A stretch of 64,000 nucleotides of DNA from Candidatus Uhrbacteria bacterium. Its GTDB lineage: Bacteria > Patescibacteriota > Patescibacteriia > UBA9934 > GWF2-40-263. Location of the stretch: NCBI GenBank assembly GCA_043805995.1, contig JAZDHJ010000059.1:71-64070 (forward strand). Reading direction: 5' to 3'. Within the stretch, counting starts at the first letter, position 1. Every line of letters begins with the position of its first letter. Below the pieces are notes generated by a model. The model saw only the letters and a program-made list of their open reading frames with translations. It ran no database searches and was not told the DNA's origin. Positions 16,744 through 35,391 of the stretch are shown here, in pieces. The position numbers and the translations under genes are program-made.

Positions 16744-16744
16744 A

Positions 16745-18565: not shown

Positions 18566-18618
18566 CCCCGCCGGCATAGGATTTTGGCGGGGTCCCGCCA
18601 AAGGCCTCCGCCGGCGGG
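18566..18618. promoter_or_regulatory. Nested cruciform element CCCGCCGGCATAGGATTTTGGCGGGGTCCCGCCAAAGGCCTCCGCCGGCGGG, immediately 5' of a start codon
   Basis: Outer stem CCCGCCGGC/GCCGGCGGG and inner hairpin TTTGGCGGG-GTC-CCGCCAAA; copies at 45752-45804 and 60033-60083, partial copy at 33466-33510; flanked by AATTATTGAAT iterations. Confidence 0.45.
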
Positions 18619-18646
18619 ATAATTATTGAATTATTGAATTATTGGG

Positions 18647-18879
18647 GGGGTGCGAATAACGAATTTTGTTATCCCGCCGACGGAGGCCTTCCTCCTACGC
18701 TCGGGCTTCGGAAGGACAGGTTGGCGGGATCCCGCTCCGAGGCCTACGAGGCGGGACGAATCTACGAATCTACGAATATGAATTTTCGTCCGTAGAGACG
18801 TTGCATTGCAACGTCTCTACGATCGATCGCCGACATTCGTATATTCGTAAATTCGTAATTGATTCGTTATTCGCACCCC
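18647..18879. mobile_element. MITE copy 1 (233 bp) with 18-bp terminal inverted repeats GGGGTGCGAATAACGAAT / ATTCGTTATTCGCACCCC
   Basis: TIRs read directly; internal hairpin TAGAGACGTTGCATTGCAACGTCTCTA; carries a nested CCTTCGC-family unit that copy 2 lacks; ends 5 bp beyond the stop of the adjacent gene. Confidence 0.7.
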
Positions 18880-18884
18880 AATCT

Positions 18885-19772
18885 CTACAACCTTCCTTCC
18901 CCAAGCGGATTGTAACCACCGTCTATTTCGACCTTATCGGAATAACCATCGCCGTCGGTATCAGATTTGGCTGGATCGGTTTTGTATTTATGATACTCGT
19001 CATAGTCAGAAAGTCCATCACTATCTGAATCTATGTTTTCATCACTGATGCCAAGTCGTTTTTCAATTGACGCGTCAAGATTATCCAAATCTTTATCACC
19101 AACCCCAACCGAATCAACGCAACCGCCCTGATCTTGGGGGTTCGACAAAAGCATGCACTGGCCAGGATCTCTGGACGCAATCGCCTTACTTAAGGCTTCT
19201 TGTCTAGTACAAATACTCGGATCAATACCAGTTCCTTGGCATCCTTTTTGCTGAGCAATCTGTTCAGAGACAGTATTAATACATCTGGTTTTACCAATTT
19301 CGCTATTAATTTTTTCGCACCAAGACAAATCTAAATTCACCCCAGCCAAACTTCGATAAACCGTATCCTGACAACCGGTTTGTTTTTCCTTGATTGGAAT
19401 ATTTTTACAGGCTTCAGGATCATTTTCTTGTAAAGCTATTTTCCAAACACAAGTCACCAAAGAGTCATCGGTCAGCTTATTGCAAATTTCAGCTGAACCG
19501 ATTGAACCGGCACTCATTTCCACCATATCAGCTCGACACTGTTCAGGAATTTTAGCTTGATCGCATTCAGACAAAGTTCGGTCCAACTCCAAACTTACTC
19601 GTTCAATGACCGCGGCCTGCTGACCAGCTTCGGTTTTTGTCGAAATCAACCACCTGGCCCCAAAAATAATCAAAATGATAAGAATAACCGTGCCACCAAT
19701 TATAGCAATTGTCTTCCAAGAAATAGGCCCTCGGGTAGGCGCATATTGATCAAAACCGTTCATAAAAAGCAA
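18885..19772 (-). CDS. Membrane-anchored Cys-rich extracellular protein with C-terminal TSP3-like repeats
   Basis: N-terminal TM helix TIAIIGGTVILIILIIFGARWLI; more than 20 Cys; C-terminus DSDSDGLSDYDE...DTDGDGYSDKVEIDGGYNPLGEGRL; start is 4 nt from the giant gene stop. Confidence 0.6.
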   Translation of the reverse strand: MLFMNGFDQYAPTRGPISWKTIAIIGGTVILIILIIFGARWLISTKTEAGQQAAVIERVSLELDRTLSECDQAKIPEQCRADMVEMSAGSIGSAEICNKLTDDSLVTCVWKIALQENDPEACKNIPIKEKQTGCQDTVYRSLAGVNLDLSWCEKINSEIGKTRCINTVSEQIAQQKGCQGTGIDPSICTRQEALSKAIASRDPGQCMLLSNPQDQGGCVDSVGVGDKDLDNLDASIEKRLGISDENIDSDSDGLSDYDEYHKYKTDPAKSDTDGDGYSDKVEIDGGYNPLGEGRL

Positions 19773-19775
19773 AAG

Positions 19776-22700
19776 TTATCTGATCGGACAATAGTTTAAA
19801 CTTATATTACTAATGTTAATTGTACCAGTTCCGTTAAAATCAAATTTTATTGGAATCTCACTTTCTGTGGCGCCGTTACAAGCAAAACCTTCTGGGAAAG
19901 GTATGGTTACACCATTACCTTCGGTTACTGGCCCAGAAGTTATATGAGTTCTGTTATTAACTTCCGTGGTTAATCCAATATGCATATTTACAATGCTCCC
20001 AAGTATTGAATCGAACATTGATGTAAAACCCGAAGCTGTGGTGGCCGAATAGGCATACTCAACACCGTCTTCAGCGTTCTCACGACAATCGGTAACACTT
20101 TCAAAAGGATCGTTGGCTGGATAATTGCAAGACTGCGGGATAGATTCACTACAATAACCATCGATATCATCATCACTAAAAATACAGTTACCTTCGGCAC
20201 ACTGACTATCGTCCCAACAATCGTAGAGTTCTTCCTCATCATTAAGATCCTCGCAATAACCTATTATTCCATCGTTACAAACTGAATCACGGTGATCCTC
20301 TTCTACGTCTGCACATGTAATTGTCGGATCGTTTGAGCAACCGCCTAAACTGCTACACGATGGATAATCTCCACCGCAAGTCGTTCCATCCAGACTGCAC
20401 GTTCCAAGGGCAGAAGAGTTTGTGTCACAGTCATCACTGGAAAAATGTCTCATGTAGCCCAGAACGGTATCAGAATCATCCAGAGGTAAGGCGGCCGAAT
20501 AAACTTTAATTCCAGCTGCCGTTAACTCATTAGTAACAACTCGAGCTTCATCCGCGGCTGTGTCAATAAATTCAGAATAAGCCTCGCCATATGAACCATC
20601 TGACATTCTGACATTTGGCAAACCGTCGCTTAAAAGGATAACGATTTTACTTTGAGCATTCGAACGTGATAATAAATCTTTTGCGCATAACAAACCCGCA
20701 GCTGTTGGTGTTCCATTCTGTAAACGAGAAGCATAAGAAACAACACCGTGATCCGAATCATACAAAAGATCACTTTGGATATTTGTAAAACCCGCATCAG
20801 TAAACGCCAATGGCACCGCATCGTCTCTGCTGGTAACACAAGCCGAGGCAAGAATTGCCAGACCTTGATCAGTTGTCAGACCTTGATCCCAAAGGCTTTC
20901 TTCACCAGAAAAACTGACTAACGCAATTCGCAATTCATCAATATGATCAAAAAGGTCGTCTATTGTTTGAGATAAAACTTCGGTCGCAACACTAATACTG
21001 GTTCCAGGAGCCATTGGCGTATTTGTGTAACCCATAGTAGTGGAGAGATCGGTCACAAAAACAATGTCAGTAGAAGGCGGTGTCCAATTAGTGGTATCGA
21101 TATCGGCGGTTATAGCTGTGCCTATTTCGCAAGCCGGAATAAATAACGTTGCCAAATCAGGACTGTTACCGGCCCGATTATTAAAATCATAAAGATCGGC
21201 GCTGGTTTGTTTGGAAGCTCCGGCTAATTCGGTTTGAATCAAAATCGAAGTTGATTCATAAGTTGTCGGACAAGTAGCGTCGCAGCTATTGGCGCAAGCC
21301 GGCTCAACACAAATTCCCGCGTCGCCAGACTCATCTAATCCGCATTCCTTAGAACTGCTATATGATCCGACCACATTCACACACGGTTCGGCATTGTAAT
21401 AATATTGGTTTGTCGATTCATAACCCCCATTACAAGCTCCAACGTTTTCACAAGTATAACCCGTGGCACAGTCGGCTGGTTGTTCACAGACTGAACCAAT
21501 AATACGTAAACTTGGATCGATTGAACCGCTGAAACAGTACCTGGGAGAATCGACACCATCGCAAAACTCGCCGGTCTGGACAGTTGCATCGCCGCAGTAG
21601 GCACCAGAAACTGTGGTGTACTGACAATTTATGTTGCAATAAGAACAAGTGTCATCATATTCTGGTGAGCAAACATCACCATTTTCATTTCCATTGTCAC
21701 AGGTTTCGTGACCGGCATAAACATAATCATCACCACAAACACTGACTGTACATTCAGAAGTACAATCATCGGTACTATCATCATTACCATCATCGCATTC
21801 TTCATCACCTTCTAAAATTCCATTACCGCAAACTTGATCGCCACCCAAACAAGCGGTCCAAGTTTCCCAAGTACAAGTCGCGCCAGGGGCGTCATTGCAA
21901 GTTCTGGTACGTGACAGTTGATACTCGGCCGAGCTGCAGGTACCGTTTGCGGCCGCGCAATCCGAACCACAAGGATAACCATCTTTAATTCCTCCATCGC
22001 TGCTCTCGCAAACTCTGGCAATATTACAAGCTTGAAATCCCGTAGCGTTACCGCAAACTCCACCGGTTCCGCAATCACTGTCCACGGTGCATTCTTCATT
22101 AATATTGGTTCCGGCGCTACAAAGACTGCCACTCCACGATTCGTAACCACCATCACAGACTTCGGGACCATTCAGCTCACCGTCACCGCAAGACGGACCC
22201 GGGAAGGTGCAATCAAAAGCGCAAGTATCGTCGTAAGTTGTATCGTACTGACCATTGGCGGCGTCACAACTGTTGATAGAGGCCCAACTGGTGGCAGGCA
22301 GATTTGAAGACCAATTGATGGTTGAATAGCAATCACATTCTTCACCACCAGCAATAAAACCATCGCCGCAAGAAAAAGAACCACCGTTACAGCTTTGACT
22401 ACAATGACCATAAGTACCATTTTCTTCTCCGTCGTCACAAAGTTCTGTTCCCTCTTTTACGCCATTACCACAAGAATAAGGAATGCAAGCCGACGTGGCC
22501 GCTGTCTGCCAAGCGCAAGTGCTAACTGAATTCACCATTGTTTCCACACAACCAATATTTTGAGTACCTCCTGTACAAGTTCGAGATTCGTATTCACCGA
22601 TTTCACAAACCTCGGCCTCGTTAACAGTTAACGTATTTGGATTATCTGTTGCCTTAACCCCATCTCCACAACGAGACGAAGAAGTTCCCATGGTTACATT

Positions 22701-25700
22701 ACTACACATTGGTCCGGTTGTTTGAAAACCGCCCGATGTTGCCGGATTTGTTAATGCCGATTCTGCTGAAGATGATGTATAAGCATACTCAGCATAAAGC
22801 GTGGCGTTGTCGGCTGAGTCGTCATCAAGTGAGTAACCCCAGGTTCCGATAATATCACTGCCTTCAAGTTGTACGCCTAATTTATAAGCCACGCCGCCAA
22901 GATTTTGGTAAAGATAAACGTGCGAGCCCTCATGACAAGTAAATTGCCCGGCCGCACTGTCCCAACAATAATTTTCATCGGCACCGGCATGACAACCAAC
23001 AAATTCATTTATTGGATCCGTCGGCAAAGTTGTCCCCAAAGCATTATCTAATTCTGATGTCCATGAAGGCCAAGTGCTGGTAGTAAAAGATGAAAGGAAG
23101 GTACCGCTAATTAATGGCGGCACGTGTTGCTGACAAATTTCATTACCCGGACAATCATCATCTTCGCCGCACAACTGATCGGAGGTTACCGAACAATAAC
23201 TGAAAAGCTGACCATAATTATCAATAATCGTGGCGATTTTACGAGCGTCGGTTAAACGTTTTAAATCTCGAGTCAATTTAGCTTTTTCTCCATCACAAAA
23301 AGCCGAGTCGTCAGTTATTGTTCCACCAGACTGAGTTACTCCCTGACAATCACCGTCCCAATCGCAGGAGACGAGATTTTCGTCTGTATCGTAAACGTAA
23401 TTTACACTTATGGAATCCTCAGTACCTCGACTTTTACAGACATTATCGGAACAAAAGAGTGAACCAGCGCCCGCATCGCATTCTTCGTTTAAAGTGCAGG
23501 GATAAGGTTGACCATCTGAATCAAGAACGGTTTCTTCTGTCGGCAAAGTTATGGTAACAGAATCTTTACAAACATTTACATCGGTGATTACCGAATCGTT
23601 GGTGTTGAAAGTCCAACTATCCAAAACTTGACCAAAAATATTTTCCATTTCGTCACTTGCACCCTCATTATAAGAAATGACGTAAATATTTGGATAAAGA
23701 ATTTTTGTCGAAGTGACTGGATCATTAGAATTGACTGCGGAAACATAATAAGTATTTCCGTCTTGTACCGCTTCGTAACCATCAACAGTGGTCTCTGAAG
23801 GTGAGCCGGTAAAACCTTGATCGGCAAACCAATCGGCTGGAGTAAGATAATTAGGATTTGGTAAAACCCGAACGCCGATGGCGTCGTTATTTGCCAAAAA
23901 GAGCAATTCTTTAAAGATTGTGGTCGAAGCAACCGAGGTTACTTCCCTCACAGTTAAGCTAGGTAAGAGATCAGTTGAACCGGCTTGATCTCGACAGTAG
24001 GAGAAGGCGAAATTGGTGAAATTACCGGTAGCCGACAAACCAAGTTCGACAGCACTAGAGCTCGTGTCTTCAAAACGATAACTACCACCAGTCCTTCTGG
24101 TGGCCGGCCAAGGATTGCTGCAAAGGAAAGTTGTCAAATCAGTTTGACCTGTAACAGATGCATTGACTGTTCTGCCGGAAGAATCAACACTTGTGATATT
24201 TGCCGAGATAACAGCCTGAACCGTTCCATCCTGAGTTTCCGAAGTGGCAGTAGTTGTTCCGGTACCAGTGGCAGCTGGAATGTTCACAATGGTTTCATCG
24301 CTAGCTTCAGTTGAACTCCAAGCACCCCAAGCCCAAGAATAAACACCTGTTATGCTTTGAATCTGTGAGGCCACGGCTCCGTTTAGTGTGAATCCAGCGG
24401 CTGTCAAAGTATGTTGTTCGCCGGTTGATGAGAAAAACCCTGGACTCGGATCTTCATAAATATCGGCACCGATTATTCCGTTATCAATAACCGAAACGTA
24501 ATCAAGAGTACAAATATCTGCCCTGGTCACAAACATGCTTGATTCATTGTTTAACAAATCAACGCCGTCAGCGCTCATCGCTCCGTTTGTATAAGTACCG
24601 GTTGAATTAGACTCACCCATTATGAATAAACTATATTCAGCGTTGGCCACCAAAGCTTCTGGCAAATCAAGGCCAATTTTTGTGGGAGTTACCAGGGTAT
24701 AATTTACCGGCACCAGACAGGCTGAAATTGTCGTGGCTTGAGCACCAAAAATTTGCAAAATATTATCTCTTAACCAATGCCAGGCCCGAACCAACAAATT
24801 TTCATCTTCGTTATTTTCCAAAGTCAAAGAAACAACAGAAGTATAAGACTCCGGGCATTCTGTCAAATCGTCAACAGAATTACCGGCCGTACAACTAGCG
24901 TCTATACAATCTATTTTATTCAATTTCAAATACAAAGTACCTGAATTTTTTACAGCCTCAACATCCATTGGTTGACTGAAATTAACCCAAACTGCCGTAT
25001 TACGACAAACACTTGTCGCACTAATCTCTGGATAACGTCCGAGAACCGTCGGACGACTAAAACAACAACTGGAATTACCGCAGCCGTAACTATTTGCATC
25101 AGTAGTAGAATTGCAGCTGGCATCGGTGGTACAAGAACACTGCAAAGTTAAATAACCATCGCCTGTTTTATTACTTACATCTTCTTTGGCTGTAATTTTC
25201 GAAGAAGCAGAATTTCCTCCCTGGTCGCGAATCTCTTGTTGCGCCGTGTTGGAAATATAAGCCAAGACAAAAGGAGCAATCCTTGTTGCACTGGCCGAAG
25301 TTGCCTCGCACTCTTCCCCAGTTTCCCTGACACCATTACCACAAACAGCGCGACGAGAATCACTTGAACCTTCGGACAAACAGCTGGAAGAACAACCGTC
25401 GCCGCTCACAGAATTTTCATCATCACAATCTTCGCCAGTCTGAGGAACACCGCCGTTACCACACAGCGAATTATAAATAGACGAGGAACCTTCGTTCGTA
25501 CAACTCGATGAACAACCGTCACTGTTTGTAGTGTTTTCGTCATCGCAATCTTCGCCTCCTTCAACAACACCGTCGCCACAAATGGCCGGATAATTACTTC
25601 TTGATTCAGAACCAAGATTCAAACAATTCGCAGAACAATTATTGGCCGAATTTTCATTACCATAATCGCATTCCTCGCCACCAGCTTGATCGCTATGGGC

Positions 25701-28700
25701 CACATCACCGTTTCCGCAAGTTGTACCAACCGAAGAAGCACCAACAGATAAACAAGTTGCTGAACAACCAGGATGACTAGTCAATGCCGGATGGCCTGTC
25801 GACGCCCCAAAATCACAATCTTCACCTGCATTAATGGTTCCATTACCACAAGTTGAACCCGTTGTTCCTATATTCAAACAAGTTGTGGAACAACCAATAC
25901 CACCGTCGCAATCTTCACCCGGTTCTACACATTGCCCATTATTGACATTACATTTTTCGCCGACGCTACAATCACTGTCTGCATCACAATCAAAAACTGC
26001 ATTGTTACCGCAAATGGCCACCGGTGCCGGCGAACCGGTATTTAGACAAAGACTAGAACAACCTACTGGCAAACTTGAAGCGACCCTTAGAGGACTTGTT
26101 CCGCTATAACCAAACAGAGAAGCCACGGTTGCGATTGTGTCGGCCAATTGTCCCTCGTAATCTGTAGCCGTCCAAGCTTCCCAATTATATCCGGAAGCAA
26201 TCAGACGCTGACCTTCGTCAGAACAGTCGTCGGCTGTACCGAATGGCACAGCGGTAAATCGCTGGATATCACCGATTCTTTGCAAAGTGGCCGAGCTTGG
26301 TTCAACTTCAACCCGATCCACTTCGCAGGTAGCATCACCGGTCGTAAAAGTCCAAGTAAGATCACCGTTATACCAAGCCATGTCTCCAACAGCCTCGGCC
26401 AAAGTGGAACCGCTGTCTGATTCGGCATCTTTAGAAACCGTCACGCGGTATGAAGTGTTGGCAATTAAATCAGAGTGGTTAATTATTAATTGATAAATTC
26501 CATTTATAGCATCACCTGTATAAACCGGTGAAATGTGTAAACTGGAAGTTACATCGGTTACTTCGTCTGGAGCGCAGGCTTCGTCTTCACATCCAAACAA
26601 CTTGACTCGATTGTTAGCAAAAGTGTCGACTTTCATGGCCAGATTAAATGTGAGACCAATCTCGGCATTCAAACAAGCCTCGGAACAACTTGGCCAATAA
26701 TTACTAACTTGCGGATCAGAAAAATTAATGGTTAATTCACCAGAACCATCGACGCTTCTTTCACCCCCATTACCATAGTTAAGTTCAAACCAAATTGAAA
26801 CAGGCGATCCGACGGCGGTTTCTTGATACGGCAAAGCCAAGGCGTCGCATATGGAATCCTGCACTCCAACCGTGTTCGGATCTATATCGGCCGCTCTATC
26901 TACAACTGCAGCTTTGGTACTGTTTCTTGAACCGAAATCCCAAAAATTATCCCCGGAATCGCAAGTTAAAAGAGTGCATTCGTATTCCTCTGACACCGGT
27001 GTAGCCGAATAAACTACGGCCCCTGTGCAAGTTAAATCACCCGCCTGACAAATACTATTGGCAGTATACTCAGCCGGATCAACTAAAACCCCCCCAACCG
27101 TACAAGGCTCGCCGTCGGCCGAGGTTTCAAAATACCAGACATAATTTTGCAGCATACCCAAACCTCTTGCACTTAAAACACCGGTTTCGCCACCAGAAAC
27201 TGTTACCTGGTAACGTTTACCCGGGAGCCAACCAGATCCTTCCGGATAATTTGGTTGCCAAAAAAAGCTCCGACTGGTCGGACTCGAAGCCACAGTCATT
27301 GGTACAACTGTCGTGCAGGAATCGCCGACGCATTCTTTAACTAAAATAGTACTGGCCGTAAAAGTTGACGAATTCATGTCCTCGGTAAAAGACACGTGCA
27401 ATATTGCATCTGAACAAACATCTGTGCCACCCTCCCAACCTTCATAAGGCGACGGTGAAACGATTCTTGGGGAGACGCCCGGCGCTGAACACTCCACTTG
27501 AATTGCCGGATTATGTGGAATATCACCGGTGGAAAAACGATAAGCATAATGGGCAGCAAAAGATTCTGCCCCACCACAGCCTAAAGTTGTAGACGAACAA
27601 GCTCCAGTATCGCAACATTCTTGACCGGTAGCACAAGTAAAATCAACATCGCACATTCCAACCTGAAAATTTATAGAATTTGATTCTTGTCCGTCCTTAT
27701 CGACTATAAAAACCGGACCGGTTTCAGTACCTTCTGGCACTGACATTGGATGAGCAATATTACCGAGAATCTGACCGTCGTCCCAAGTAACCGGAGTCGG
27801 GGTGACCTCTACGCCATTATAAAATTCCACTTTTCCAAAAGGAGCCACCGTGCCGGCATCGTCCTCAAATCCCTCACCATAAATCGCCACAGTTGTACCC
27901 ACCGGACCAGCGTCTGGAACCAAAGCACAAATACCAGGCGAGGCCTCACCAGCAGTCACCAAAAAATCGATAGTATCCGAAGACAAGCCACCACGCACCA
28001 CCCATAAATCATGCAAACCGGCAACTACTGCCGGACTGGTTTGAGTTAAGCCATAAACCGCCGGAACCTTGATGACAATTGTGTCGTCTGACCAATAAAC
28101 CGATTCGCAAGCGTCAGGAAAATTATTATTGCCAAGCCCTTCGTATTCAGTTGATTGATTTTGAAAACGAACCGTGCCTTGAGTGGTGCCAAAATTTGAG
28201 CCATAAATTGTTACGTATTGTCCGGCCGGACCGGCATCAAGACAAGACGAACCACCGCAATCCGCATCGCTTGAACAAAGAACTGTGGAATCATTAACAC
28301 AACGCCTTAAACCAGAATCAACATCGATAATAACCGGCGGTTCGGTATTGGAAGAAGTGCTAACCGCAAATTCTTTAACATTGGAGCCTTGGCGGCTATC
28401 AGCCTCACCGGAAAAAAATTGAACATCATAAAAACCACTGTCCAAAAGCGGCGAAATGACAGAAAAAGAAGTTCCATCAGAATTCCAATTGGCATAACTG
28501 GCGGCTTCGTAACTGCCAAAATAAAAAGTGGAATTGCTCAATTCAGCACCAAAATTTTTTCCAGATACCGCCACAGAATCACCACCCTGACCCGCATTCG
28601 GCGATATATTACAAATACCTGGTCGAACTGTAGTATTCACGTCAAAATCACCAATGACAGATCCGTTATCATCATTAGTTTGGTCAAATTTATCATTAAC

Positions 28701-30284
28701 ACTATTTGTAACCTTAATTGGACCGTCTTTGGCACCGGTTGGAACTTGAACAACTATTTCGCTATCCGACCACCAATCACCGCAAGCAGAATTAGAATTA
28801 ATTAATACACTTTCATTGTCACTGACCCCAAGAAAAATTACCGTACCAGCTGTCGTACCAAAACCACTGCCGGAAATGGTAATCAGATTACCTTCAGCTC
28901 CATCGCCAGGCGAAACTCTTTCAATTTCAATCGTGCTGGTGCAAATTCCGTTTTCACAATTACCAGAACGACAGTCGCCATCGTTATAACATTCAGCGCC
29001 ATCACAAGCTCCACAATAATATTCACCGGTGCCGCCGCAGTCGCAAGGTTCTGGATCAACACAAGTACCTGTTTCATAATAAGGATCACCTGAATCAGAA
29101 ATATCGTTATCGCAAGTCGCCGCTCGCAACATTACATTAACCGAACCCGAATCTGAATTTCCGGCACAATCGCTACCCTCGGCCACAATTGTGTACTCAT
29201 GATTAGTAACTTCGCCCGTTGTATTCCACCAACCATCAAAATAATAAGTATCCGGAACAAGCGAATCGGCGGTTCGATAGCTGGTGCTATAAACATCGTC
29301 GCCGCCAACCCAAAAAGTTACCAATGACACACCGACATCATCGACAACTTTCGCTTGCAACGGTTCAGCTCGATCAGCAAAAAGTGAATCACCGGTTGAA
29401 GGACGTTGCATGGTTACGATTGGAGCCGAAACATCCAAACCGCTACCGGTTGTAAAAGAAAAGTCGCAAGGAAAATCTTCGTTCGAACAATCAATTTGAT
29501 AACCGGCTGAACTTTCAAGTGTTGGATCGATAGTTACATCAAAAGTTGTATTTGGTTCGAAACAGAAGAAACCGGAGACGTCTTCGCAAGAATCAAGCGG
29601 AGTAAAAATAAAAGTTTGAGCACTTAAAGCAGTACCGCCAACGGCTGTAAAAGTTCCGGCCACTTCATCGCCAGCTATATCGATTCTAATTTTACTGTTT
29701 TCGGTAATTTCGGCTTTATTGACTCGTTGACTAAAGACAAATCTGGGTTGATAATTTTGAATGGTGGCGGCGCAAGCCGTATCTAAAGGATTCAAAACAA
29801 AAGTTGTTGTCCAATCCGGAACCTCCCAACACTCGGAACCGACACATCCATTTTCTTCTGAAACATTAGTTTCAACACCGCCCCCCATAGCCGTGGTAAT
29901 CCTCGAGATAAAAAACTGAGCAATGGCAAAAGAAGATAAAATTATTACCAAACCAATCAAAGCATTCTTCATTACCGCCTTGGCTTTTTTTATTTTTTCC
30001 TCTTCCCCACCAGCCGTGGTCCACAAAAAACCGGCGTAAATTACAAAACAAACAGCCACCACACCAACAAACCCAAGCGCCACTCGAATTATATTGGCGA
30101 TGAGCAAAACCAAACTAACATTGGCCAAACCGGCTGTTGAAGCAAAGTTTGCACCATTGGTTCCGCCAAACAATTCGTTGGTTGAAACCGTGGCTGCTAA
30201 GGCCGAGTGCGAAACCAAGAAAACAGCGGCCGAAAATAGCACGGCGACCAGAATGATTTTAAGTGAGGGGTGAAAATTTTTCAC
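19776..30284 (-). CDS. Giant surface protein (3502 aa): VirB2/TrbC-like pilin-fold N-terminal membrane module, IPT/TIG-like repeats, many Myxococcus-type Cys-rich repeats, vWA domain
   Basis: N-terminus: signal peptide, then two hydrophobic helices flanking a KIKKAKAV basic loop, the same architecture as the two upstream genes. Repeated xISGSGFGTTAGTVIF / VTIYGSNFGTTQGTVRF (IPT/TIG-like). More than 10 CGNGxxExGEECDDGNxxxxDGCSxxC units. VTDLSTTMGY...ALVSFSGE...ILLSDG matches vWA/MIDAS. Confidence 0.75.
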   Translation of the reverse strand: MKNFHPSLKIILVAVLFSAAVFLVSHSALAATVSTNELFGGTNGANFASTAGLANVSLVLLIANIIRVALGFVGVVAVCFVIYAGFLWTTAGGEEEKIKKAKAVMKNALIGLVIILSSFAIAQFFISRITTAMGGGVETNVSEENGCVGSECWEVPDWTTTFVLNPLDTACAATIQNYQPRFVFSQRVNKAEITENSKIRIDIAGDEVAGTFTAVGGTALSAQTFIFTPLDSCEDVSGFFCFEPNTTFDVTIDPTLESSAGYQIDCSNEDFPCDFSFTTGSGLDVSAPIVTMQRPSTGDSLFADRAEPLQAKVVDDVGVSLVTFWVGGDDVYSTSYRTADSLVPDTYYFDGWWNTTGEVTNHEYTIVAEGSDCAGNSDSGSVNVMLRAATCDNDISDSGDPYYETGTCVDPEPCDCGGTGEYYCGACDGAECYNDGDCRSGNCENGICTSTIEIERVSPGDGAEGNLITISGSGFGTTAGTVIFLGVSDNESVLINSNSACGDWWSDSEIVVQVPTGAKDGPIKVTNSVNDKFDQTNDDNGSVIGDFDVNTTVRPGICNISPNAGQGGDSVAVSGKNFGAELSNSTFYFGSYEAASYANWNSDGTSFSVISPLLDSGFYDVQFFSGEADSRQGSNVKEFAVSTSSNTEPPVIIDVDSGLRRCVNDSTVLCSSDADCGGSSCLDAGPAGQYVTIYGSNFGTTQGTVRFQNQSTEYEGLGNNNFPDACESVYWSDDTIVIKVPAVYGLTQTSPAVVAGLHDLWVVRGGLSSDTIDFLVTAGEASPGICALVPDAGPVGTTVAIYGEGFEDDAGTVAPFGKVEFYNGVEVTPTPVTWDDGQILGNIAHPMSVPEGTETGPVFIVDKDGQESNSINFQVGMCDVDFTCATGQECCDTGACSSTTLGCGGAESFAAHYAYRFSTGDIPHNPAIQVECSAPGVSPRIVSPSPYEGWEGGTDVCSDAILHVSFTEDMNSSTFTASTILVKECVGDSCTTVVPMTVASSPTSRSFFWQPNYPEGSGWLPGKRYQVTVSGGETGVLSARGLGMLQNYVWYFETSADGEPCTVGGVLVDPAEYTANSICQAGDLTCTGAVVYSATPVSEEYECTLLTCDSGDNFWDFGSRNSTKAAVVDRAADIDPNTVGVQDSICDALALPYQETAVGSPVSIWFELNYGNGGERSVDGSGELTINFSDPQVSNYWPSCSEACLNAEIGLTFNLAMKVDTFANNRVKLFGCEDEACAPDEVTDVTSSLHISPVYTGDAINGIYQLIINHSDLIANTSYRVTVSKDAESDSGSTLAEAVGDMAWYNGDLTWTFTTGDATCEVDRVEVEPSSATLQRIGDIQRFTAVPFGTADDCSDEGQRLIASGYNWEAWTATDYEGQLADTIATVASLFGYSGTSPLRVASSLPVGCSSLCLNTGSPAPVAICGNNAVFDCDADSDCSVGEKCNVNNGQCVEPGEDCDGGIGCSTTCLNIGTTGSTCGNGTINAGEDCDFGASTGHPALTSHPGCSATCLSVGASSVGTTCGNGDVAHSDQAGGEECDYGNENSANNCSANCLNLGSESRSNYPAICGDGVVEGGEDCDDENTTNSDGCSSSCTNEGSSSIYNSLCGNGGVPQTGEDCDDENSVSGDGCSSSCLSEGSSDSRRAVCGNGVRETGEECEATSASATRIAPFVLAYISNTAQQEIRDQGGNSASSKITAKEDVSNKTGDGYLTLQCSCTTDASCNSTTDANSYGCGNSSCCFSRPTVLGRYPEISATSVCRNTAVWVNFSQPMDVEAVKNSGTLYLKLNKIDCIDASCTAGNSVDDLTECPESYTSVVSLTLENNEDENLLVRAWHWLRDNILQIFGAQATTISACLVPVNYTLVTPTKIGLDLPEALVANAEYSLFIMGESNSTGTYTNGAMSADGVDLLNNESSMFVTRADICTLDYVSVIDNGIIGADIYEDPSPGFFSSTGEQHTLTAAGFTLNGAVASQIQSITGVYSWAWGAWSSTEASDETIVNIPAATGTGTTTATSETQDGTVQAVISANITSVDSSGRTVNASVTGQTDLTTFLCSNPWPATRRTGGSYRFEDTSSSAVELGLSATGNFTNFAFSYCRDQAGSTDLLPSLTVREVTSVASTTIFKELLFLANNDAIGVRVLPNPNYLTPADWFADQGFTGSPSETTVDGYEAVQDGNTYYVSAVNSNDPVTSTKILYPNIYVISYNEGASDEMENIFGQVLDSWTFNTNDSVITDVNVCKDSVTITLPTEETVLDSDGQPYPCTLNEECDAGAGSLFCSDNVCKSRGTEDSISVNYVYDTDENLVSCDWDGDCQGVTQSGGTITDDSAFCDGEKAKLTRDLKRLTDARKIATIIDNYGQLFSYCSVTSDQLCGEDDDCPGNEICQQHVPPLISGTFLSSFTTSTWPSWTSELDNALGTTLPTDPINEFVGCHAGADENYCWDSAAGQFTCHEGSHVYLYQNLGGVAYKLGVQLEGSDIIGTWGYSLDDDSADNATLYAEYAYTSSSAESALTNPATSGGFQTTGPMCSNVTMGTSSSRCGDGVKATDNPNTLTVNEAEVCEIGEYESRTCTGGTQNIGCVETMVNSVSTCAWQTAATSACIPYSCGNGVKEGTELCDDGEENGTYGHCSQSCNGGSFSCGDGFIAGGEECDCYSTINWSSNLPATSWASINSCDAANGQYDTTYDDTCAFDCTFPGPSCGDGELNGPEVCDGGYESWSGSLCSAGTNINEECTVDSDCGTGGVCGNATGFQACNIARVCESSDGGIKDGYPCGSDCAAANGTCSSAEYQLSRTRTCNDAPGATCTWETWTACLGGDQVCGNGILEGDEECDDGNDDSTDDCTSECTVSVCGDDYVYAGHETCDNGNENGDVCSPEYDDTCSYCNINCQYTTVSGAYCGDATVQTGEFCDGVDSPRYCFSGSIDPSLRIIGSVCEQPADCATGYTCENVGACNGGYESTNQYYYNAEPCVNVVGSYSSSKECGLDESGDAGICVEPACANSCDATCPTTYESTSILIQTELAGASKQTSADLYDFNNRAGNSPDLATLFIPACEIGTAITADIDTTNWTPPSTDIVFVTDLSTTMGYTNTPMAPGTSISVATEVLSQTIDDLFDHIDELRIALVSFSGEESLWDQGLTTDQGLAILASACVTSRDDAVPLAFTDAGFTNIQSDLLYDSDHGVVSYASRLQNGTPTAAGLLCAKDLLSRSNAQSKIVILLSDGLPNVRMSDGSYGEAYSEFIDTAADEARVVTNELTAAGIKVYSAALPLDDSDTVLGYMRHFSSDDCDTNSSALGTCSLDGTTCGGDYPSCSSLGGCSNDPTITCADVEEDHRDSVCNDGIIGYCEDLNDEEELYDCWDDSQCAEGNCIFSDDDIDGYCSESIPQSCNYPANDPFESVTDCRENAEDGVEYAYSATTASGFTSMFDSILGSIVNMHIGLTTEVNNRTHITSGPVTEGNGVTIPFPEGFACNGATESEIPIKFDFNGTGTINISNISLNYCPIR

Positions 30285-30290
30285 AAAATT

Positions 30291-32186
30291 TTATTGGCTA
30301 ATTGTGACTCCGGTGAATGTGCATGGATCGAGGCTAGCCACACCATTGCAACAATACCTACCAGAATTTGCACCACCACAATTTGAAGTGACATTGTCTT
30401 CTTTTGGTCCATTTGCCGGCGACATACAAATTTGCCAGGCGCTTTTAACACCGTTGGTAATCACTGGATAATAACTGTACAAATCACCGGTTCGTCCGTT
30501 ACCGTTTGAATCTTCGGTGCCGTTATCACTCTCCCAAAAAGTCGCATGGTTAATTGTCACCACAGTAAAATTATCATCAAACGAACTTGGTGTAGTTATT
30601 ACATCAGCAACAGAGCCAGGATTTTCAGCATTGGAATTTTGATACCAAAAAGCCTGAACAAAATCAGGCAACAGTCTGATATTAGTGGAATTAAGAGTTG
30701 AAGATTGCATGAGTGAATCAAAATTGATCGTTACATTCTGATTCAAAGTAACTTGTCCTTGATTAACCGTAGGGCCAACACTGAAAATTGCCGGCACATC
30801 GGTTCTGGGTTCAGCTTCAGTTGTAAAACCCCATTCGTAGTTGTCCAAACTTGACGGAGAACCTGGACCGTCAGCTATGCCATTTCTGTTTCCATCCAAA
30901 GAATTGCCAGCCGCATCAACCAAACCATTAAACAAACCTTCGTCAGTCATGGCCGCTTGAGGCGGATCAGTACTTAACGCAGCAGCCTTGGCCACGACAT
31001 CCAAATTCACATTTCTCGGCAAACAGAAAATATCATTTCCGCAGGGATCAGAACCACAAATTTCGGTTGGTACAAATTCCACAGTTCGGTAGACATTGGA
31101 GACACTATAAGTACCGGCGGTATTGTCTGTGGTGTTTTTTAAAACCTTAATGTTAGTAAACTCCGGTGGCGAGTCTGCTGGCAGAGGTGTTACACCGGTA
31201 TAAGTTCCACTGGCCGCTATTGGGTCCATAGCTTCGTTAAAAGTTATGGCCACAATAATATTTGGCGCTTCGGTTGACCTAAGGGGTGATAAATCGGCTG
31301 GCACAACCGAAACAACTTGTGGTGGGGTTAAATCAACTTCGGTTGAAACCTCGAACTGCCAGGCATAACCTTCAGAATCAAAGGCACCGGCAAAGGAACC
31401 ATTGGGTAAAACTTTTTTAATTCCGGTACCGAGAGTCACGGTATAATTCATTTCTGTTGTGTCGCTACCAAGCAAGACCGTAGGATCAAAGCTAAAAGTT
31501 TTGTGATCGGCTGTAACCGCAACTTGTACTTGACTGCCAGTCAAAGCTACTCCGTCCGCAATATCGGTTGGAGCAATGGTTACGTTGGCTGCGTTTAAAA
31601 CATTAGGGGTAGTCGCAACACCATCATCATCAACCATAATAGTATCGACTTTAATCGCCTCCTTAAAAGTCACATAAATTCTGGTGTTGCGGGGAATTTC
31701 GGTAGCGTCACGGGCTGGATAATGAGATTCAATGATGCCAGAACCGAGTGAACCAGCTAAAGGTTCATTAAAATTTTGCGCTGTAGTGGTGGAAATGCCA
31801 CCGTTTAAACCAGCGGCCTCGAGAAGATAATTTAAAACAAAAGTGGCAATGGAATAAGCCGAGAGAATTATGAGCAACCCGATGATAGTGGTTTTAATAA
31901 TATCTTTGGCTTTTTTGGTATTTTTTTCTTCGCCTTGAGAAGTGAAATAAAGCCAACCGGCATAAATTATTAAACACACCATGATGACACCCAAAACCCC
32001 AAGAACGATTCTGATAATTCGAGCCACTAAAATACCAAGCTCAATTGTAGCTAAACCCGAAGTCTCGCCAACTGTGGATAGTTCGTTAGTTACCAAATCT
32101 GCGGCAAAAGAATGAAATGGTAAAAACAACAAAAAAGCCACGGTGGCAATACCAACTGCCGTAATCAAAAGCCTATTTTTTTTCAC
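30291..32186 (-). CDS. Surface protein (631 aa) with the same pilin-like N-terminal module fused to Ig-like extracellular domains
   Basis: Signal peptide, then NELSTVGETSGLATIELGILVARIIRIVLGVLGVIMVCLIIYAGWLYFTSQGEEKNTKKAKDIIKTTIIGLLIILSAYSIATFVL, aligning with the giant protein's N-terminus; the following region (SHYPARDATEIPRNTRIYVTF...) is also paralogous to the giant's post-pilin region. Confidence 0.7.
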   Translation of the reverse strand: MKKNRLLITAVGIATVAFLLFLPFHSFAADLVTNELSTVGETSGLATIELGILVARIIRIVLGVLGVIMVCLIIYAGWLYFTSQGEEKNTKKAKDIIKTTIIGLLIILSAYSIATFVLNYLLEAAGLNGGISTTTAQNFNEPLAGSLGSGIIESHYPARDATEIPRNTRIYVTFKEAIKVDTIMVDDDGVATTPNVLNAANVTIAPTDIADGVALTGSQVQVAVTADHKTFSFDPTVLLGSDTTEMNYTVTLGTGIKKVLPNGSFAGAFDSEGYAWQFEVSTEVDLTPPQVVSVVPADLSPLRSTEAPNIIVAITFNEAMDPIAASGTYTGVTPLPADSPPEFTNIKVLKNTTDNTAGTYSVSNVYRTVEFVPTEICGSDPCGNDIFCLPRNVNLDVVAKAAALSTDPPQAAMTDEGLFNGLVDAAGNSLDGNRNGIADGPGSPSSLDNYEWGFTTEAEPRTDVPAIFSVGPTVNQGQVTLNQNVTINFDSLMQSSTLNSTNIRLLPDFVQAFWYQNSNAENPGSVADVITTPSSFDDNFTVVTINHATFWESDNGTEDSNGNGRTGDLYSYYPVITNGVKSAWQICMSPANGPKEDNVTSNCGGANSGRYCCNGVASLDPCTFTGVTISQ

Positions 32187-32280
32187 ATGCTTTGTGTTTA
32201 AGAAACCGTAATCATTTTAGCACAAAAAACAAAAAACCGCTTGGCTTTTTTCACCAAACGGTTGTGGATAATAAACCAAC

Positions 32281-32670
32281 CTAAGATACAGCTCCTAAAC
32301 GAATCAAACTAGAAGTAGCAATCAGGTAAATACAGAACATAACCACCATACCTGTTCCACCAACAAAAACCAGGTAACGACAGTGACGAACCTTATCATC
32401 AGATCCTGAGGATATAATATATTGAAGCGCTCCTTGCAAAAGGAGAAAAATGAAAAAAATGGCAAAAACCGCCGAAGCTACTCGCAAACCACGAAAAAAC
32501 AATTCCAAGGTTTGTCCGGAATTAAAAGCTTGTCCTTGAAGAAAATCAAAAAACGAACCCTTAGCCGGAGCCGATGAGTTTACCGAATTCGTCGCTGGAG
32601 TTTTCAAGATAGTAGTTGGCACTCCACTCACGGCCAAAAGCGTCGATGATTTTAAACCTGGAAAAAACAT
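32281..32670 (-). CDS. Small VirB2/TrbC-like pilin-fold protein (about 129 aa)
   Basis: Start set at MFFPGLKSST, since the upstream extension of the track ORF translates a G-rich repeat. Signal-like N-terminus, then two hydrophobic helices (VASAVFAIFFIFLLLQGAL and YLVFVGGTGMVVMFCIYLIA) around a charged loop, the same topology as the N-terminal modules of the two following genes. Confidence 0.55.
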   Translation of the reverse strand: MFFPGLKSSTLLAVSGVPTTILKTPATNSVNSSAPAKGSFFDFLQGQAFNSGQTLELFFRGLRVASAVFAIFFIFLLLQGALQYIISSGSDDKVRHCRYLVFVGGTGMVVMFCIYLIATSSLIRLGAVS

Positions 32671-32689
32671 ATAAATTTTATTTATGGTA

Positions 32690-32870
32690 GAGGGAGTAAA
32701 TTGTCTGGGGCGTTGAGGCATTAAAGCCTCGCCCGTAAACCAGCTCTGCCCATAGAGCAACACCTGAGGGGCTATGGCCGAGGGGCACTAAGGCAAGGAA
32801 AATATTTCTTAGGCAAAATCCTCCATGCCCCTAAGGCCCTTTAACGCCCCACAACGCCCCCCCCTAAACC
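32690..32870. repeat. G-rich intergenic repeat of the GCCTCGCCCGTAAAC...GGCTATGGCCGAGGGGCACTAAGG family
   Basis: Shares GCCTCGCCCGTA and GGCTATGGCCGAGGGG cores with 5800-5890, 35410-35460 and 42430-42470; its translation produces spurious N-terminal extensions on flanking ORFs. Confidence 0.5.
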
Positions 32871-33307
32871 AACACCTTTTCCAAAACCTCTTTAACTCGT
32901 CCAGCATTCGCTCGACCAGCTACGGCTGTCATTACAGCCCCCATCGCTTTCCCTGTATCTGCTTTGGCCGAAATTCCAGCTTCCAATAAAGCATCACGAA
33001 CGGTTTTTTCCAAATCTTCGTCCGGCATCTCGGCCGGCAAATAACCTTCAAGTGTTACCAATTCATTTTTATTTTTTTCCACCAAATCATTTCGACCAGC
33101 CGCTTCAAAAGAAGCCAATGCATCTTTGAGTTGTTTGATTTGAGTTCGGATAACTGCCAAGACATCTTCTTCCTTTAATTCCCGAATTAATTCAATCTCT
33201 TTATTTTTAAGCGCCGAACGCAAAAGTCGAAGGGTGGAAAGCACGGCCTCCTTTTTTTCCTTCATGGCCGCGGTGAGATCGGCGTTGATTTTTTCTAGGG
33301 TGGACAT
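32864..33307 (-). CDS. GatB/YqeY-domain protein
   Basis: 147 aa; INADLTAAMKEKKEAVLSTLRLLRSALKNKEIE is typical of the YqeY family. Confidence 0.8.
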   Translation of the reverse strand: MSTLEKINADLTAAMKEKKEAVLSTLRLLRSALKNKEIELIRELKEEDVLAVIRTQIKQLKDALASFEAAGRNDLVEKNKNELVTLEGYLPAEMPDEDLEKTVRDALLEAGISAKADTGKAMGAVMTAVAGRANAGRVKEVLEKVLV

Positions 33308-33329
33308 ATTTTTGATTGGGTTATGTAAA

Positions 33330-33600
33330 TAGGTAGAAACATAGAAATTGTAGATTGGTAGAAAACGTAGAATTTTTGTCGGTTGTTTGCTTTTGAACTC
33401 TGATTAAAATGATTTTCTGATTACAATGATTTATTTTTAATCCAATTCCAACAATCATGGCCATCACTTCCCGCCGGTGGAGGCCTTTGGCGGGATCCCG
33501 TTCGAAACTAAGAGGCGAGATAATCAGTTTAATCAGAGTTCAGCCAACCAACACAACAATCTACGCCGTCTACGACTTCGACTATTCTACTAAAACCAGT
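33330..33600. repeat. Intergenic palindromic element (TTGAACTCTGATTAAA ... TTTAATCAGAGTTCAG) containing a partial cruciform unit CCCGCCGGTGGAGGCCTTTGGCGGGATCCCG
   Basis: A 16-bp inverted repeat flanks the core; the TTTGAACTCTGATT motif is shared with the 42404-42740 element. Confidence 0.5.
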
Positions 33601-33602
33601 AT

Positions 33603-33632
33603 ACAAAAAAGCGGCTAAAGCCGCTAGTTTGT
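33603..33632 (-). terminator. Rho-independent terminator of rpsU
   Basis: Minus-strand hairpin AGCGGCTTTAGCCGCT followed by UUUUUUG. Confidence 0.6.
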
Positions 33633-33893
33633 TTATTTGCGATGTGATTTGTTTTTCTTTTCTTCTTCTTCAGTCAAACGACCAGTTTTCAGTAAGAATT
33701 CACGATGAGCAGCCGTTTCTAAACGACGAAGTGCGCTGTTTCTGAGGGAAGTTTTGTTTTTATCACGAGCGTGGAAGCGGTGCTTTTTAGCTTCGATAAG
33801 ACGGCCAGAAAGCTGAACGCGTTTGGTAAAGCGACGCAACAGAGCGTCGAAGCTTTCGCCTTTACGGCGTTTTGTTTCTAACATATCTATCAC
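33633..33893 (-). CDS. rpsU: 30S ribosomal protein S21
   Basis: KGESFDALLRRFTKRVQLSGRLIEAKKHRFH aligns with the S21 consensus (EPFDVALRRFKR...). Confidence 0.75.
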   Translation of the reverse strand: MIDMLETKRRKGESFDALLRRFTKRVQLSGRLIEAKKHRFHARDKNKTSLRNSALRRLETAAHREFLLKTGRLTEEEEKKNKSHRK

Positions 33894-33957
33894 CTTCCTT
33901 TCCTGCAGGAGCTAAATAGCCTCTGCTTAAGTTTTGACGCTGGTTATAATGCCTTTT

Positions 33958-35391
33958 TTAATGCTTGGTGTCAAGACCTTTGGCTATTTCCAGTTTCTTT
34001 TTCATAATATGGATGATTTTACTAGCGTCAACAATTTCCTGGGCGCCGGATTCCATGTCACGAACTATGATTGTGCCATCGAGAACTTCTTTTTGTCCAA
34101 GAATCAGAGTGAACAATACACCAAGCTTATTAGCTAATTCCAACTGAGTTTTTAAAGAACCTTTGCCAAAAGCCTCGCGAACACTGATACCAGACTGACG
34201 AAAATCTTCAAAAACCTTTAGACCGACCCGGCGAGCTGAATCACCTAATTGAGCAAAAAAGACATCAACTTTTTTGGCGGGTGGCTGAACCTTTAATTCT
34301 TTCAAAGCCAACACAATGCGTTCCATGCCCAAAGCCACACCACAACCCGGAGTTCCCTCGCGACCACCAAGAAGTTCGACTAAACCGTCATAACGACCGC
34401 CGCCGCCGATGGCATTCTGAGCTCTTTCGCCTTCATCGTTCACGGTCCAGATTTCAAAAACTGTACGGTTGTAATAATCGAGTCCACGCACCAAATGTGG
34501 ATCAAGGGTGTAAGGCACACCAGCTTCGTCTAAAAATTCCAAAATGCGCATGAAGTGATTTTTGGATTCTTCGTCAAGCCAATCAAGAATTTGTGGCGCG
34601 TCAACTTTCACAGCCAAACAGCCTTCGACTTTACAATCCAAAAGGCGCATAGGATTTTTTAAAAGGCGGCGTTTACAATCCTCGCAAATCTGATTTTTTT
34701 TGGTGCGATAATAAGAAGCCAATTCTGTTTTATAAGCTTGACGTGAATCTTGAGTCCCAATGGAATTCATGCGGATGTTGGTTTCCAAACCAATGGTTTT
34801 TAAAAGATTGTAAGTCATGACAATAATCTGCGCGTCGATGATAGGTTCGGAACTACCAAAAGCCTCGAAACCGATTTGATAAAACTGACGATAGCGACCA
34901 GCTTGTGGACGGTCGTATCTAAAATTTGGACCTTCGTAAAAAAGTTTAACCGGCTGAGGCAGGTTTAACATGCCGTGATTAATGTAAGCTCGAGCCGCCG
35001 AAGCCGTCATTTCCGGACGCATGACTACCTTATCACCACCCTTGTCCTCAAAACTATAAATTTCTTTTTCAACAATATCGGTCTGTTTACCAACGGTGCG
35101 AATAAACAATTCTTCCTTTTCCAAAATTGGAAAATCAATTCGGTCAAAACTGTAAGTCTCAGCCATGCTTTTGGTTGCTTCACGTAAAATATCCCAATAT
35201 ATTTGTTCGTCTGGCAAAATGTCACGAAAGCCGCGCAAAAGTTCCGGAGTTTTTCGACCCTTTGATAATGGTACGACCGGTGGTTCTGGTACCGAAATTT
35301 TCTTTTTTAATTCTTCCGGCTCTTCGATTTTATCTTCAACCTTAATCGATTTTTCTATTTTTTTCACCGGTGCTTTTATTTTATTGGGCAT
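33958..35391 (-). CDS. hisS: Histidine--tRNA ligase
   Basis: LRGFRDILPDEQIYW class-II HisRS motif; C-terminal anticodon-binding domain. Start set at MPNKIKAP, since the track ORF extends into a G-rich repeat. Confidence 0.85.
   Translation of the reverse strand: MPNKIKAPVKKIEKSIKVEDKIEEPEELKKKISVPEPPVVPLSKGRKTPELLRGFRDILPDEQIYWDILREATKSMAETYSFDRIDFPILEKEELFIRTVGKQTDIVEKEIYSFEDKGGDKVVMRPEMTASAARAYINHGMLNLPQPVKLFYEGPNFRYDRPQAGRYRQFYQIGFEAFGSSEPIIDAQIIVMTYNLLKTIGLETNIRMNSIGTQDSRQAYKTELASYYRTKKNQICEDCKRRLLKNPMRLLDCKVEGCLAVKVDAPQILDWLDEESKNHFMRILEFLDEAGVPYTLDPHLVRGLDYYNRTVFEIWTVNDEGERAQNAIGGGGRYDGLVELLGGREGTPGCGVALGMERIVLALKELKVQPPAKKVDVFFAQLGDSARRVGLKVFEDFRQSGISVREAFGKGSLKTQLELANKLGVLFTLILGQKEVLDGTIIVRDMESGAQEIVDASKIIHIMKKKLEIAKGLDTKH

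Follow-up and report, generated by a model that had tools for sequence, protein, structure and literature searches.

Known pilin systems and the Uhrbacteria locus

Canonical VirB2/TraA/TrbC pilins have a long leader that is cleaved off and two hydrophobic helices that flank a short basic loop in the cytoplasm; in the mature protein both ends lie outside the cell. Here we describe three consecutive genes of a Candidatus Uhrbacteria bacterium, an uncultured and ultra-small member of the Patescibacteria, located on the minus strand of a 64,000-nucleotide stretch of contig JAZDHJ010000059.1 (this whole stretch is referred to as the window), whose products of 129, 631 and 3502 aa carry or appear to carry a hairpin related to these pilins, fused in the two larger proteins to long, putatively extracellular regions. 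The leader and two-helix topology of the canonical pilins recurs in the two large proteins, whereas canonical pilins are ~70-120 aa long, have no extra domains and are encoded within type IV secretion system (T4SS) operons, which is not the case here.

Much of bacterial diversity falls within the Patescibacteria, whose members seem to live attached to other cells. VirB2-like pilins (PF04956/PF18895) are widespread in the phylum, often as arrays of 2-11 divergent genes. In Southlakia, the one genetically tractable species, an array of this kind is essential, and so is the T4SS. No pilus of PF18895 proteins has been seen so far, and PrgB-like adhesins were not found in the survey (PMC12102498; PMC10633639). 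With these arrays (Quinonero-Coronel et al. 2025, PMC12102498; Wang et al. 2023, PMC10633639) the locus shares the hairpin family, the phylum and the tandem arrangement of divergent paralogues. It differs in that its two large modules are 40% identical, against a published array average of 25%, and in that the published arrays consist of small stand-alone pilins, often beside virB4, whereas two of the three members here bear ectodomains of ~500 and ~3370 aa. The cluster also sits among housekeeping genes rather than near those of the T4SS, and some of the assemblies that carry it have no detectable VirB4.

Streptococcus sanguinis PilB is a modular type IV pilin with a von Willebrand factor A (vWA) module (PMC8179133). 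It is the nearest precedent in concept. The same logic applies here, with a pilin polymerisation and anchor module grafted to an adhesive vWA module with a metal-ion-dependent adhesion site (MIDAS) in a monoderm bacterium, but the pilin class is unrelated, the ectodomain is about ten times larger and there is no prepilin motif. Type IV pilins have one N-terminal helix and a class III signal peptide, and the type IV pilus machine assembles them. The pilus adhesins RrgA, GBS104 and Mfa5 likewise have a distal vWA/MIDAS on an Ig-like stalk, with a weak sequence match between our protein and Mfa5 of the Porphyromonas Mfa1 fimbriae; unlike the sortase-pilus adhesins RrgA and GBS104, the present proteins have no LPxTG motif and differ in the chemistry of anchoring and assembly, being attached by a hairpin at the N-terminus and not at the C-terminus. 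Giant adhesins (SiiE, MpIBP; RTX/Bap-type) and large surface proteins of the Candidate Phyla Radiation (CPR) share the long Ig-like repeats, acidic Ca-binding modules and distal ligand end, but SiiE/MpIBP-type adhesins use type I secretion system export or other anchoring. We know of no giant surface adhesin of the RTX/Bap type that uses a VirB2-type hairpin anchor. We found no description of a pilin-ectodomain fusion in the literature searched on PF18895/T4SS_pilin, Uhrbacteria pilins or CPR giant adhesins; pilin arrays are known in the phylum, while pilin modules on 500- to 3400-residue ectodomains are not described in the literature that we found.

A VirB2-type hairpin at the N-termini of the two large proteins

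A previous sequence-only reading of this DNA had placed three adjacent genes across 19776-32763, and the listing of open reading frames (ORFs) found them at these coordinates. The genes and the N-terminal elements of the two large products are:

32281..32670, minus strand: small stand-alone pilin-like gene, 129 aa (transmembrane segments at aa ~56-89 and 97-121; loop SSGSDDKVRHCR)
30291..32186, minus strand: 631-aa candidate modular pilin, in which a signal peptide and VirB2-type hairpin are followed by three Big_5 domains and a C-terminus rich in Cys (Big_5 E 9.6e-14; T4SS_pilin 24.4 bits)
31818..32060, minus strand: hairpin of the 631-aa protein (aa 43-123; loop TSQGEEKNTKKAK), from hydropathy and a Pfam stretch at 59-117
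19776..30284, minus strand: 3502-aa giant candidate modular pilin (T4SS_pilin, TIG, Big_5, Big_7, Cys repeats, vWA)
30192-30284, minus strand: predicted signal peptide of the giant (aa 1-31, cleavage site ALA/A), from hydropathy and AlphaFold2
29892..30137, minus strand: hairpin of the giant (aa 50-131; loop AGGEEEKIKKAK), from the T4SS_pilin match and AlphaFold2 helices

The 631-aa product is identical to an NCBI entry named 'Ig-like domain-containing protein' from Candidatus Uhrbacteria. Over their first 139 residues the two large proteins share 40% identity (E 3e-26). The family profiles of the two proteins were collinear over residues 17-300 (E 2e-44), so the shared unit comprises the signal peptide, the hairpin and the first Big_5 domain. 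Hydropathy and AlphaFold2 gave the same layout for both, consisting of a signal peptide with an AxA-type site (ALA/A in the giant, SFA/A in the 631-aa protein, the slash marking cleavage), a helix at ~58-90, a loop with the KKAK motif that the sequence-only reading had pointed out, and a helix at ~95-132. In the AlphaFold2 model of the giant, helices 58-90 and 95-132 had a predicted local distance difference test score of about 80 and were joined by a four-residue turn within the loop. Both large proteins are thus predicted to have a cleavable leader, two hydrophobic helices and a short basic loop.

Profile searches placed this module in the T4SS pilin family, as had been proposed from the sequence. 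The giant scored above the curated cut-off of Pfam T4SS_pilin (PF18895), with 27.7 bits for the whole protein and 30.4 bits for the N-terminal piece against a cut-off of 26.6, and the 631-aa protein at 24.4 bits was slightly under it. Most orthologues of the 631-aa protein have PF18895 on record and a few have PF04956, and its module matched the NCBIfam Mbov_0395 pilin-like conjugal transfer protein model at a sub-cut-off score of 30 bits. The closest database relatives of the module were stand-alone 130-186-aa PF18895 pilins of Patescibacteria, with E-values down to 1.6e-17 and 51-55% identity, and two of them also match PF04956 TrbC/VirB2. Of 47 giant orthologues, 46-47 keep residues Y83, G85, G93, A101 and G111 unchanged, which indicates that the giant hairpin is constrained beyond the needs of a generic anchor; when the stand-alone pilins were included in the alignment, G85, G93 and G111 were invariant too and A101 nearly so. 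Judged by its sequence, the hairpin belongs with the VirB2-type pilins.

A PDB sequence search with the module profile returned no match to the solved VirB2 structures or to TraA, and gave only spurious matches to designed 'Pizza' repeat proteins. Because helical hairpins match thousands of unrelated chains in fold searches, such a match does not discriminate, and the structural comparison suggested in the sequence-only reading was uninformative.

With three consecutive pilin-module genes the locus has the arrangement of a patescibacterial VirB2 array (at least two pilin-module genes in tandem or one gene apart), and a module hidden Markov model (HMM) found no further pilin modules among the window ORFs. 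The small single-module size of ordinary pilins (mature ~70-130 aa) is seen only in the 129-aa ORF and not in the 631- and 3502-aa proteins.

The module profile search matched 85,473 representative proteins. Among these matches we noted the database proteins P0022 (1775 aa), P0014 (820 aa) and P0157 (1369 aa). Many metagenomic proteins carry 2-17 tandem T4SS_pilin hairpins per polypeptide ('poly-pilins') and others have two hairpins plus long repeat regions. The literature consulted describes only arrays of separate pilin genes.

The small gene and its fusions to YqeY

The ORF at 32281-32763 encodes 160 aa when read from a GTG and 129 aa from the ATG at 32670. The 129-aa form is exactly the NCBI call V1716_04210 on a 69,350-bp contig of a Candidatus Uhrbacteria metagenome-assembled genome (MAG), in agreement with the length and stand-alone character first proposed for this gene. 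AlphaFold2 modelled helices 40-87 and 91-128 as a medium-confidence hairpin from a shallow alignment. The small ORF has no convincing signal peptide in this genome, so that of the topology claimed for all three proteins, a signal-like segment followed by helix, basic loop and helix, the small one retains the hairpin and lacks the leader.

BLASTP found no similarity between the small ORF and the two large proteins, and the small ORF had no Pfam match. Comparison of the small family with the pilin-module alignment by hhalign gave 90% probability (E 1.5e-6) over 74 columns with both helices and the loop in register, compared to at most 0.5% for reversed and column-shuffled decoys. The HMMs of the small and module families also cross-matched each other's members at 1e-5 to 1e-8. 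The three N-termini can therefore be aligned as had been claimed, two of them strongly and the third by profile-profile comparison. The ratio of nonsynonymous to synonymous substitution rates of the small gene against its relatives was 0.10-0.18, and 0.07-0.10 over the hairpin, indicating purifying selection. The small protein is thus a diverged relative of the pilin module, recognisable by profile methods only.

The small gene lies between the 631-aa gene and yqeY, with one feature to note on each side of it:

32235..32263, minus strand: terminator-like hairpin (11 pairs and a T-run) between the small gene and the 631-aa gene
32864..33307, minus strand: YqeY gene, directly upstream of the small gene

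The hairpin is the strongest terminator-like site within 16000-34000. It was recognised by consensus only, in a region where such sites were no more numerous overall than in shuffled sequence. The 631-aa gene stop and the giant start are separated by 6 nt, and the giant stop and the start of the following 295-aa gene by 3 nt. The intervening terminator-like hairpin suggests that the small gene is transcribed apart from these closely spaced 631-aa, giant and TSP3 genes.

YqeY is a cytoplasmic GatB/YqeY-domain protein. Its gene and the small gene are separate and in different frames in the window. Among the related loci described below, the small module was found upstream in about half, as a separate ORF in 14 loci and as an in-frame C-terminal extension of YqeY in 25, a few of the latter being near-identical to each other. 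Small-family members in relatives have classical signal peptides, and the YqeY extensions have an AxA motif after the hydrophobic segment every time (e.g. HPALA/AT). Internal signal-peptidase cleavage of the YqeY-pilin fusion may free a mature pilin. The fusion ORFs are ~250 aa long, for example at 9173-9916 of locus L004, and were also seen in L012, L016, L019-L021, L023-L030, L032 and others.

Domain content of the ectodomains

In both large proteins further domains follow helix 2, which bears out the proposed fusion of the module to large extracellular regions. The regions of the giant to which we refer are:

27705..28925, minus strand: four IPT/TIG domains (aa ~454-860; TIG E 5.3e-20, 4 stretches)
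25365..25850, minus strand: Cys-rich acidic block 1 (aa 1479-1640; pattern CGNG...E.CD...C...C; TIGR02232 myxo_disulf_rpt E 5.1e-22, 6 stretches; DUF4215; regular expression)
21495..22670, minus strand: Cys-rich block 2, looser (aa 2539-2930; weak DUF4215; CGxG starts; 3 full regular-expression repeats)
20505..21068, minus strand: putative vWA domain with MIDAS (aa ~3073-3260; D3079-x-S-x-T, T3194, D3220; weak VWA/VWA_2 matches)

The IPT/TIG repeats noted in the sequence-only reading were recovered by Pfam as four TIG domains, accompanied by Big_7 and four Big_5 stretches (total Big_5 E 6.2e-18). Big_5 and Big_7 precede the TIG domains at aa 166-367, and Big_5 follows them at aa 939-1054, 1191-1315 and ~1744-1786. 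The Cys-rich repeats were also real, but the earlier count of more than 10 was generous: there are 6 HMM stretches, 7 full regular-expression repeats and 14 CGxG starts. The ectodomain is highly acidic, with 485 Asp and Glu against 115 Lys and Arg, and holds nearly all of the protein's 179 Cys. Neither Pfam nor the PDB sequence search matched aa ~1780-2560 or the extreme C-terminus.

For the vWA/MIDAS domain the motif held up and the profile match in this protein did not. The MIDAS motif is present as D3079-L-S-T-T, T3194 and D3220, and its residues (DxSxS/T/D) are kept in 37-39 of 47 orthologues with the consensus DLSGSM. The vWA match is below the Pfam cut-off in this giant, and one orthologue matches both VWA and VWA_2 cleanly. 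Weak PDB sequence matches of the region were to the vWA protein 7w6b and the fimbrial subunit Mfa5. These matches point to a vWA domain with a MIDAS near the C-terminus of the giant.

Signatures of other anchoring systems were searched for by regular expression. No LPx[TSA]G sorting motif was found in the proteins, whose C-termini are not hydrophobic, and no class III signal prepilin motif, G/(F or M)-x-x-x-E with cleavage after G, occurs in the first 60 residues of any of the three. The Pfam matches of the giant include no S-layer, SLH or cell-wall-binding domain. One segment of the giant at aa ~2410-2480 (nt ~22845-23055), LPTDPINEF...SHVYLYQNLGGVAYKLGVQLEG, seemed to us to resemble the globular head of CPR type IV pilins and pseudopilins, but has no Pfam or PDB support.

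Recurrence of the locus and its relation to T4SS genes

The scan for related loci covered one genome per species and found relatives of the 631-aa protein in 294 species-level genomes; the best 80 loci were fetched for gene-level comparison. The family of the 631-aa protein comprises at least 345 clusters of ~600-660 aa; PF18895 and PF13205 are on record for most of them, and those that bear a name are mostly Uhrbacteria. Wherever the fetched contig extended far enough, a giant ORF with the pilin module followed within a few bases of the 631-aa homologue, so that the pairing of pilin module and giant protein recurs in related genomes as the sequence-only reading had asked. Complete giants have a median length of 3347 aa and are mostly ~3050-3600 aa, with a few shorter or split. 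Across 46 species the giant is collinear end to end with ~32% mean identity and few indels. Giants split into at least two ORFs (L006 11864-21854, 1796 plus about 1540-1585 aa) or shortened (1180-1700 aa) were seen in the group L006, L052, L061, L068 and L074, and could be due to frameshifts, assembly errors or real splits.

Where gene content was inspected, YqeY neighbours the pair, and two of these loci also have HisRS and signal peptidase I alongside. In most loci with downstream room the giant is followed by an alignable gene for an N-terminally anchored single-pass protein, with TSP3 Ca-binding repeats at its end where complete. In the window this gene is:

18885..19772, minus strand: 295-aa membrane protein with one transmembrane segment (15-47), a Cys-rich ectodomain and, at the C-terminus, TSP3-type Ca-binding repeats (TSP3_bac E 4.7e-8)

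The window is ordinary housekeeping chromosome of Candidatus Uhrbacteria. Its other genes encode PPDK, pyruvate kinase, HtrA, FtsZ, FtsA, DAGK, YbeY, YqeY, HisRS and signal peptidase I, as well as LytR, Der, Pth, DprA, TopA, RelA, ParAB, ScpAB and AspRS/AsnRS-type synthetases. The absence of T4SS genes noted at the outset for the 64-kb window was confirmed by family scans, as nearly all non-overlapping ORFs of at least 150 aa were scanned and none matched the VirB4, VirB6, VirD4 or relaxase families. Likewise, the 10 kb on either side of the homologous loci inspected contained no T4SS assembly genes (VirB4, VirB6, others). The pilin-module genes are thus not encoded with T4SS assembly genes in the window or within 10 kb of these related loci. 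A mobile-element or conjugation origin was rejected because the housekeeping neighbours are in conserved synteny and no relaxase, coupling protein or VirB4 lies nearby.

VirB4 status was taken from Table S1 of the published survey, in which Uhrbacteria fall within class ABY1. In one section of that table 18 of 36 Uhrbacteria assemblies are VirB4-positive. VirB4, TrsD and the type IV coupling protein (T4CP) are present in many Uhrbacteria, and of ten locus-bearing assemblies that were matched to the table six are VirB4-positive and four VirB4-negative, three of the four being ~1.0-1.1 Mb. The full 631-aa/giant pair was read directly in one VirB4-negative assembly, RIFOXYB12_FULL_58_10 (1.12 Mb). 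In one VirB4-positive genome, VirB4 and TrsD lie ~570 genes from the locus and Table S3 lists no VirB2 match. For this genome, the one that was compared, the survey therefore leaves the fusions unreported, and the locus draws attention to them.

Proposed function and alternatives

We judge the chances to be about even that the proteins are modular VirB2-type pilins that function while anchored in the membrane, without strict dependence on a T4SS. Each large protein consists of a predicted Sec signal peptide with an AxA-type site, a T4SS_pilin hairpin and a long acidic Cys-rich ectodomain. The positive-inside rule and the VirB2 precedent place the basic loop in the cytoplasm and the region after helix 2 outside the cell. 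The 631-aa protein would display its three Ig-like Big_5 domains there, and the giant a stalk of Ig-like domains and disulfide-rich acidic repeats with the vWA domain and its intact MIDAS at the end. We infer that the hairpin serves as membrane anchor and association module for the three paralogues. The ectodomains would form a long surface fibre whose vWA tip would bind a host-cell or substrate ligand in a metal-dependent manner, and the downstream TSP3 Ca-binding membrane protein is a candidate partner. The domain content suggests a host-attachment apparatus. That the giant is conserved along its whole length across species accords better with a conserved surface organelle than with an adhesin that evolves quickly to suit a particular host.

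Several observations weigh against membrane-anchored pilins that work apart from a T4SS. The VirB4-negative genomes are draft MAGs, in which a divergent VirB4 may be missed. In several relatives the small protein, with its signal peptide and hairpin, resembles an ordinary major pilin, which makes the cluster look like a pilus-subunit operon. The conserved signature residues could equally mean that the module interacts with T4SS assembly factors. With regard to attachment, ~800 central residues of the giant have no recognisable domain, and such uniform conservation from end to end is unusual for a host-specific adhesin.

The alternative that survives best is that the large proteins are true minor or tip pilins of a VirB2-type pilus built by a T4SS, with the small protein or stand-alone pilins encoded elsewhere forming the shaft, a VirB4 machine extracting the hairpins and the vWA adhesin presented at low copy, for example at the tip. 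We consider this possible but rather unlikely. The membership of the module in the pilin family and its retained invariant residues are what would be expected of such subunits, as are the classical signal peptides of the small-family relatives, which are like those of pre-pilins. The published tandem arrays of 2-11 VirB2-like genes, one of them essential in Southlakia, offer a model for the cluster, and the necessary VirB4, TrsD and T4CP are encoded in many Uhrbacteria, including six of the ten locus genomes. A vWA adhesin carried on a pilin module has a precedent in type IV pili (S. sanguinis PilB, PMC8179133), and since the survey found no PrgB-like adhesins the fusions would supply a missing one. 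The genomic evidence fits this pilus less well, however: the locus never adjoins T4SS genes in the loci examined, four of the ten locus assemblies have no detectable VirB4, and about half of the loci lack the small gene proposed for the shaft, which in 25 is fused to the cytoplasmic YqeY. On steric grounds, a VirB2 helical lattice could hardly accommodate a C-terminal extension of 3370 aa anywhere but at an end, and no pilus of PF18895 proteins has yet been seen.

An improbable alternative is that the locus encodes a conserved structural part of the cell envelope, such as a wall-spanning or S-layer-like scaffold or a surface structure linked to division, and does not serve attachment. Rigidity would then come from the Ig-like, Cys-rich and Ca-binding modules, and the binding partner of the vWA domain would be a further component of the envelope. 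The collinearity of the giant over 46 species at ~32% identity with few indels would suit a structural role, as would the fixed housekeeping position near ftsA and ftsZ, the highly acidic protein and the conserved Ca-binding TSP3 membrane proteins downstream. The giant has no S-layer, SLH or cell-wall-binding domain, however; its mix of TIG, Big and vWA-MIDAS domains is typical of adhesins, with weak PDB matches to a vWA protein and Mfa5, and one hairpin anchor per copy would be an unusual design for a lattice.

That the pilin likeness is convergent, with a signal peptide and a generic two-helix anchor drawing weak HMM matches, is very improbable and already largely refuted: the Pfam scores are marginal (24.4-30.4 bits against 26.6), fold searches match thousands of unrelated hairpins and the PDB sequence search found no VirB2, but stand-alone PF18895 pilins match at E-values down to 1.6e-17 with 51-55% identity, the polar loop motif and Gly/Ala positions are invariant rather than hydrophobic residues only, reversed decoys of the same helix-loop-helix composition reach at most 0.5% against 90%, and some members also match PF04956 TrbC/VirB2.

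Returning to the membrane-anchored modular pilins, a wider reading is that the VirB2 hairpin has become a general grafting module for surface proteins in Uhrbacteria, and probably in other Patescibacteria, and that the modular pilins are the adhesive subunits of an attachment organelle, pilus-like or bundled through the hairpins, that can work without a canonical T4SS. We advance this tentatively and think it somewhat unlikely; if true, it would mean a new type of filament or anchor at the cell surface and would give the essential patescibacterial pilin/T4SS system its missing adhesin. The locus supplies concrete, conserved candidates that join a pilin module to a 3400-residue adhesin-like fibre with a putative metal-dependent binding domain. 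With these candidates it can be tested whether VirB2-type modules of monoderm ultra-small bacteria act as filaments or as anchors, and what ligand the surface fibres bind.

Other features of the window and of the related records

Beyond the 295-aa gene lie two more transmembrane proteins with TSP3_bac repeats, whose membership of the cluster is uncertain:

17885-18601, minus strand: 238-aa transmembrane protein with TSP3_bac repeats
16745-17785, minus strand: 346-aa transmembrane protein with TSP3_bac repeats

Three successive single-pass membrane proteins with TSP3-type repeats are thus encoded between 16745 and 19772 on the minus strand, directly 3' of the giant gene. Another large protein of the window is encoded by a 1609-aa ORF at 886-5715 (minus strand), with no Pfam match and no predicted transmembrane segment.

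Among the related records, L014, L017, L025, L030, L031, L046 and many more carry an Uhrbacteria-type locus under the title 'uncultured Gammaproteobacteria bacterium', and one is titled 'Candidatus Kapaibacterium'. These titles include the 1.0-Mb chromosome-level record OZ246408.1, and the records look like mislabelled Patescibacteria MAGs.

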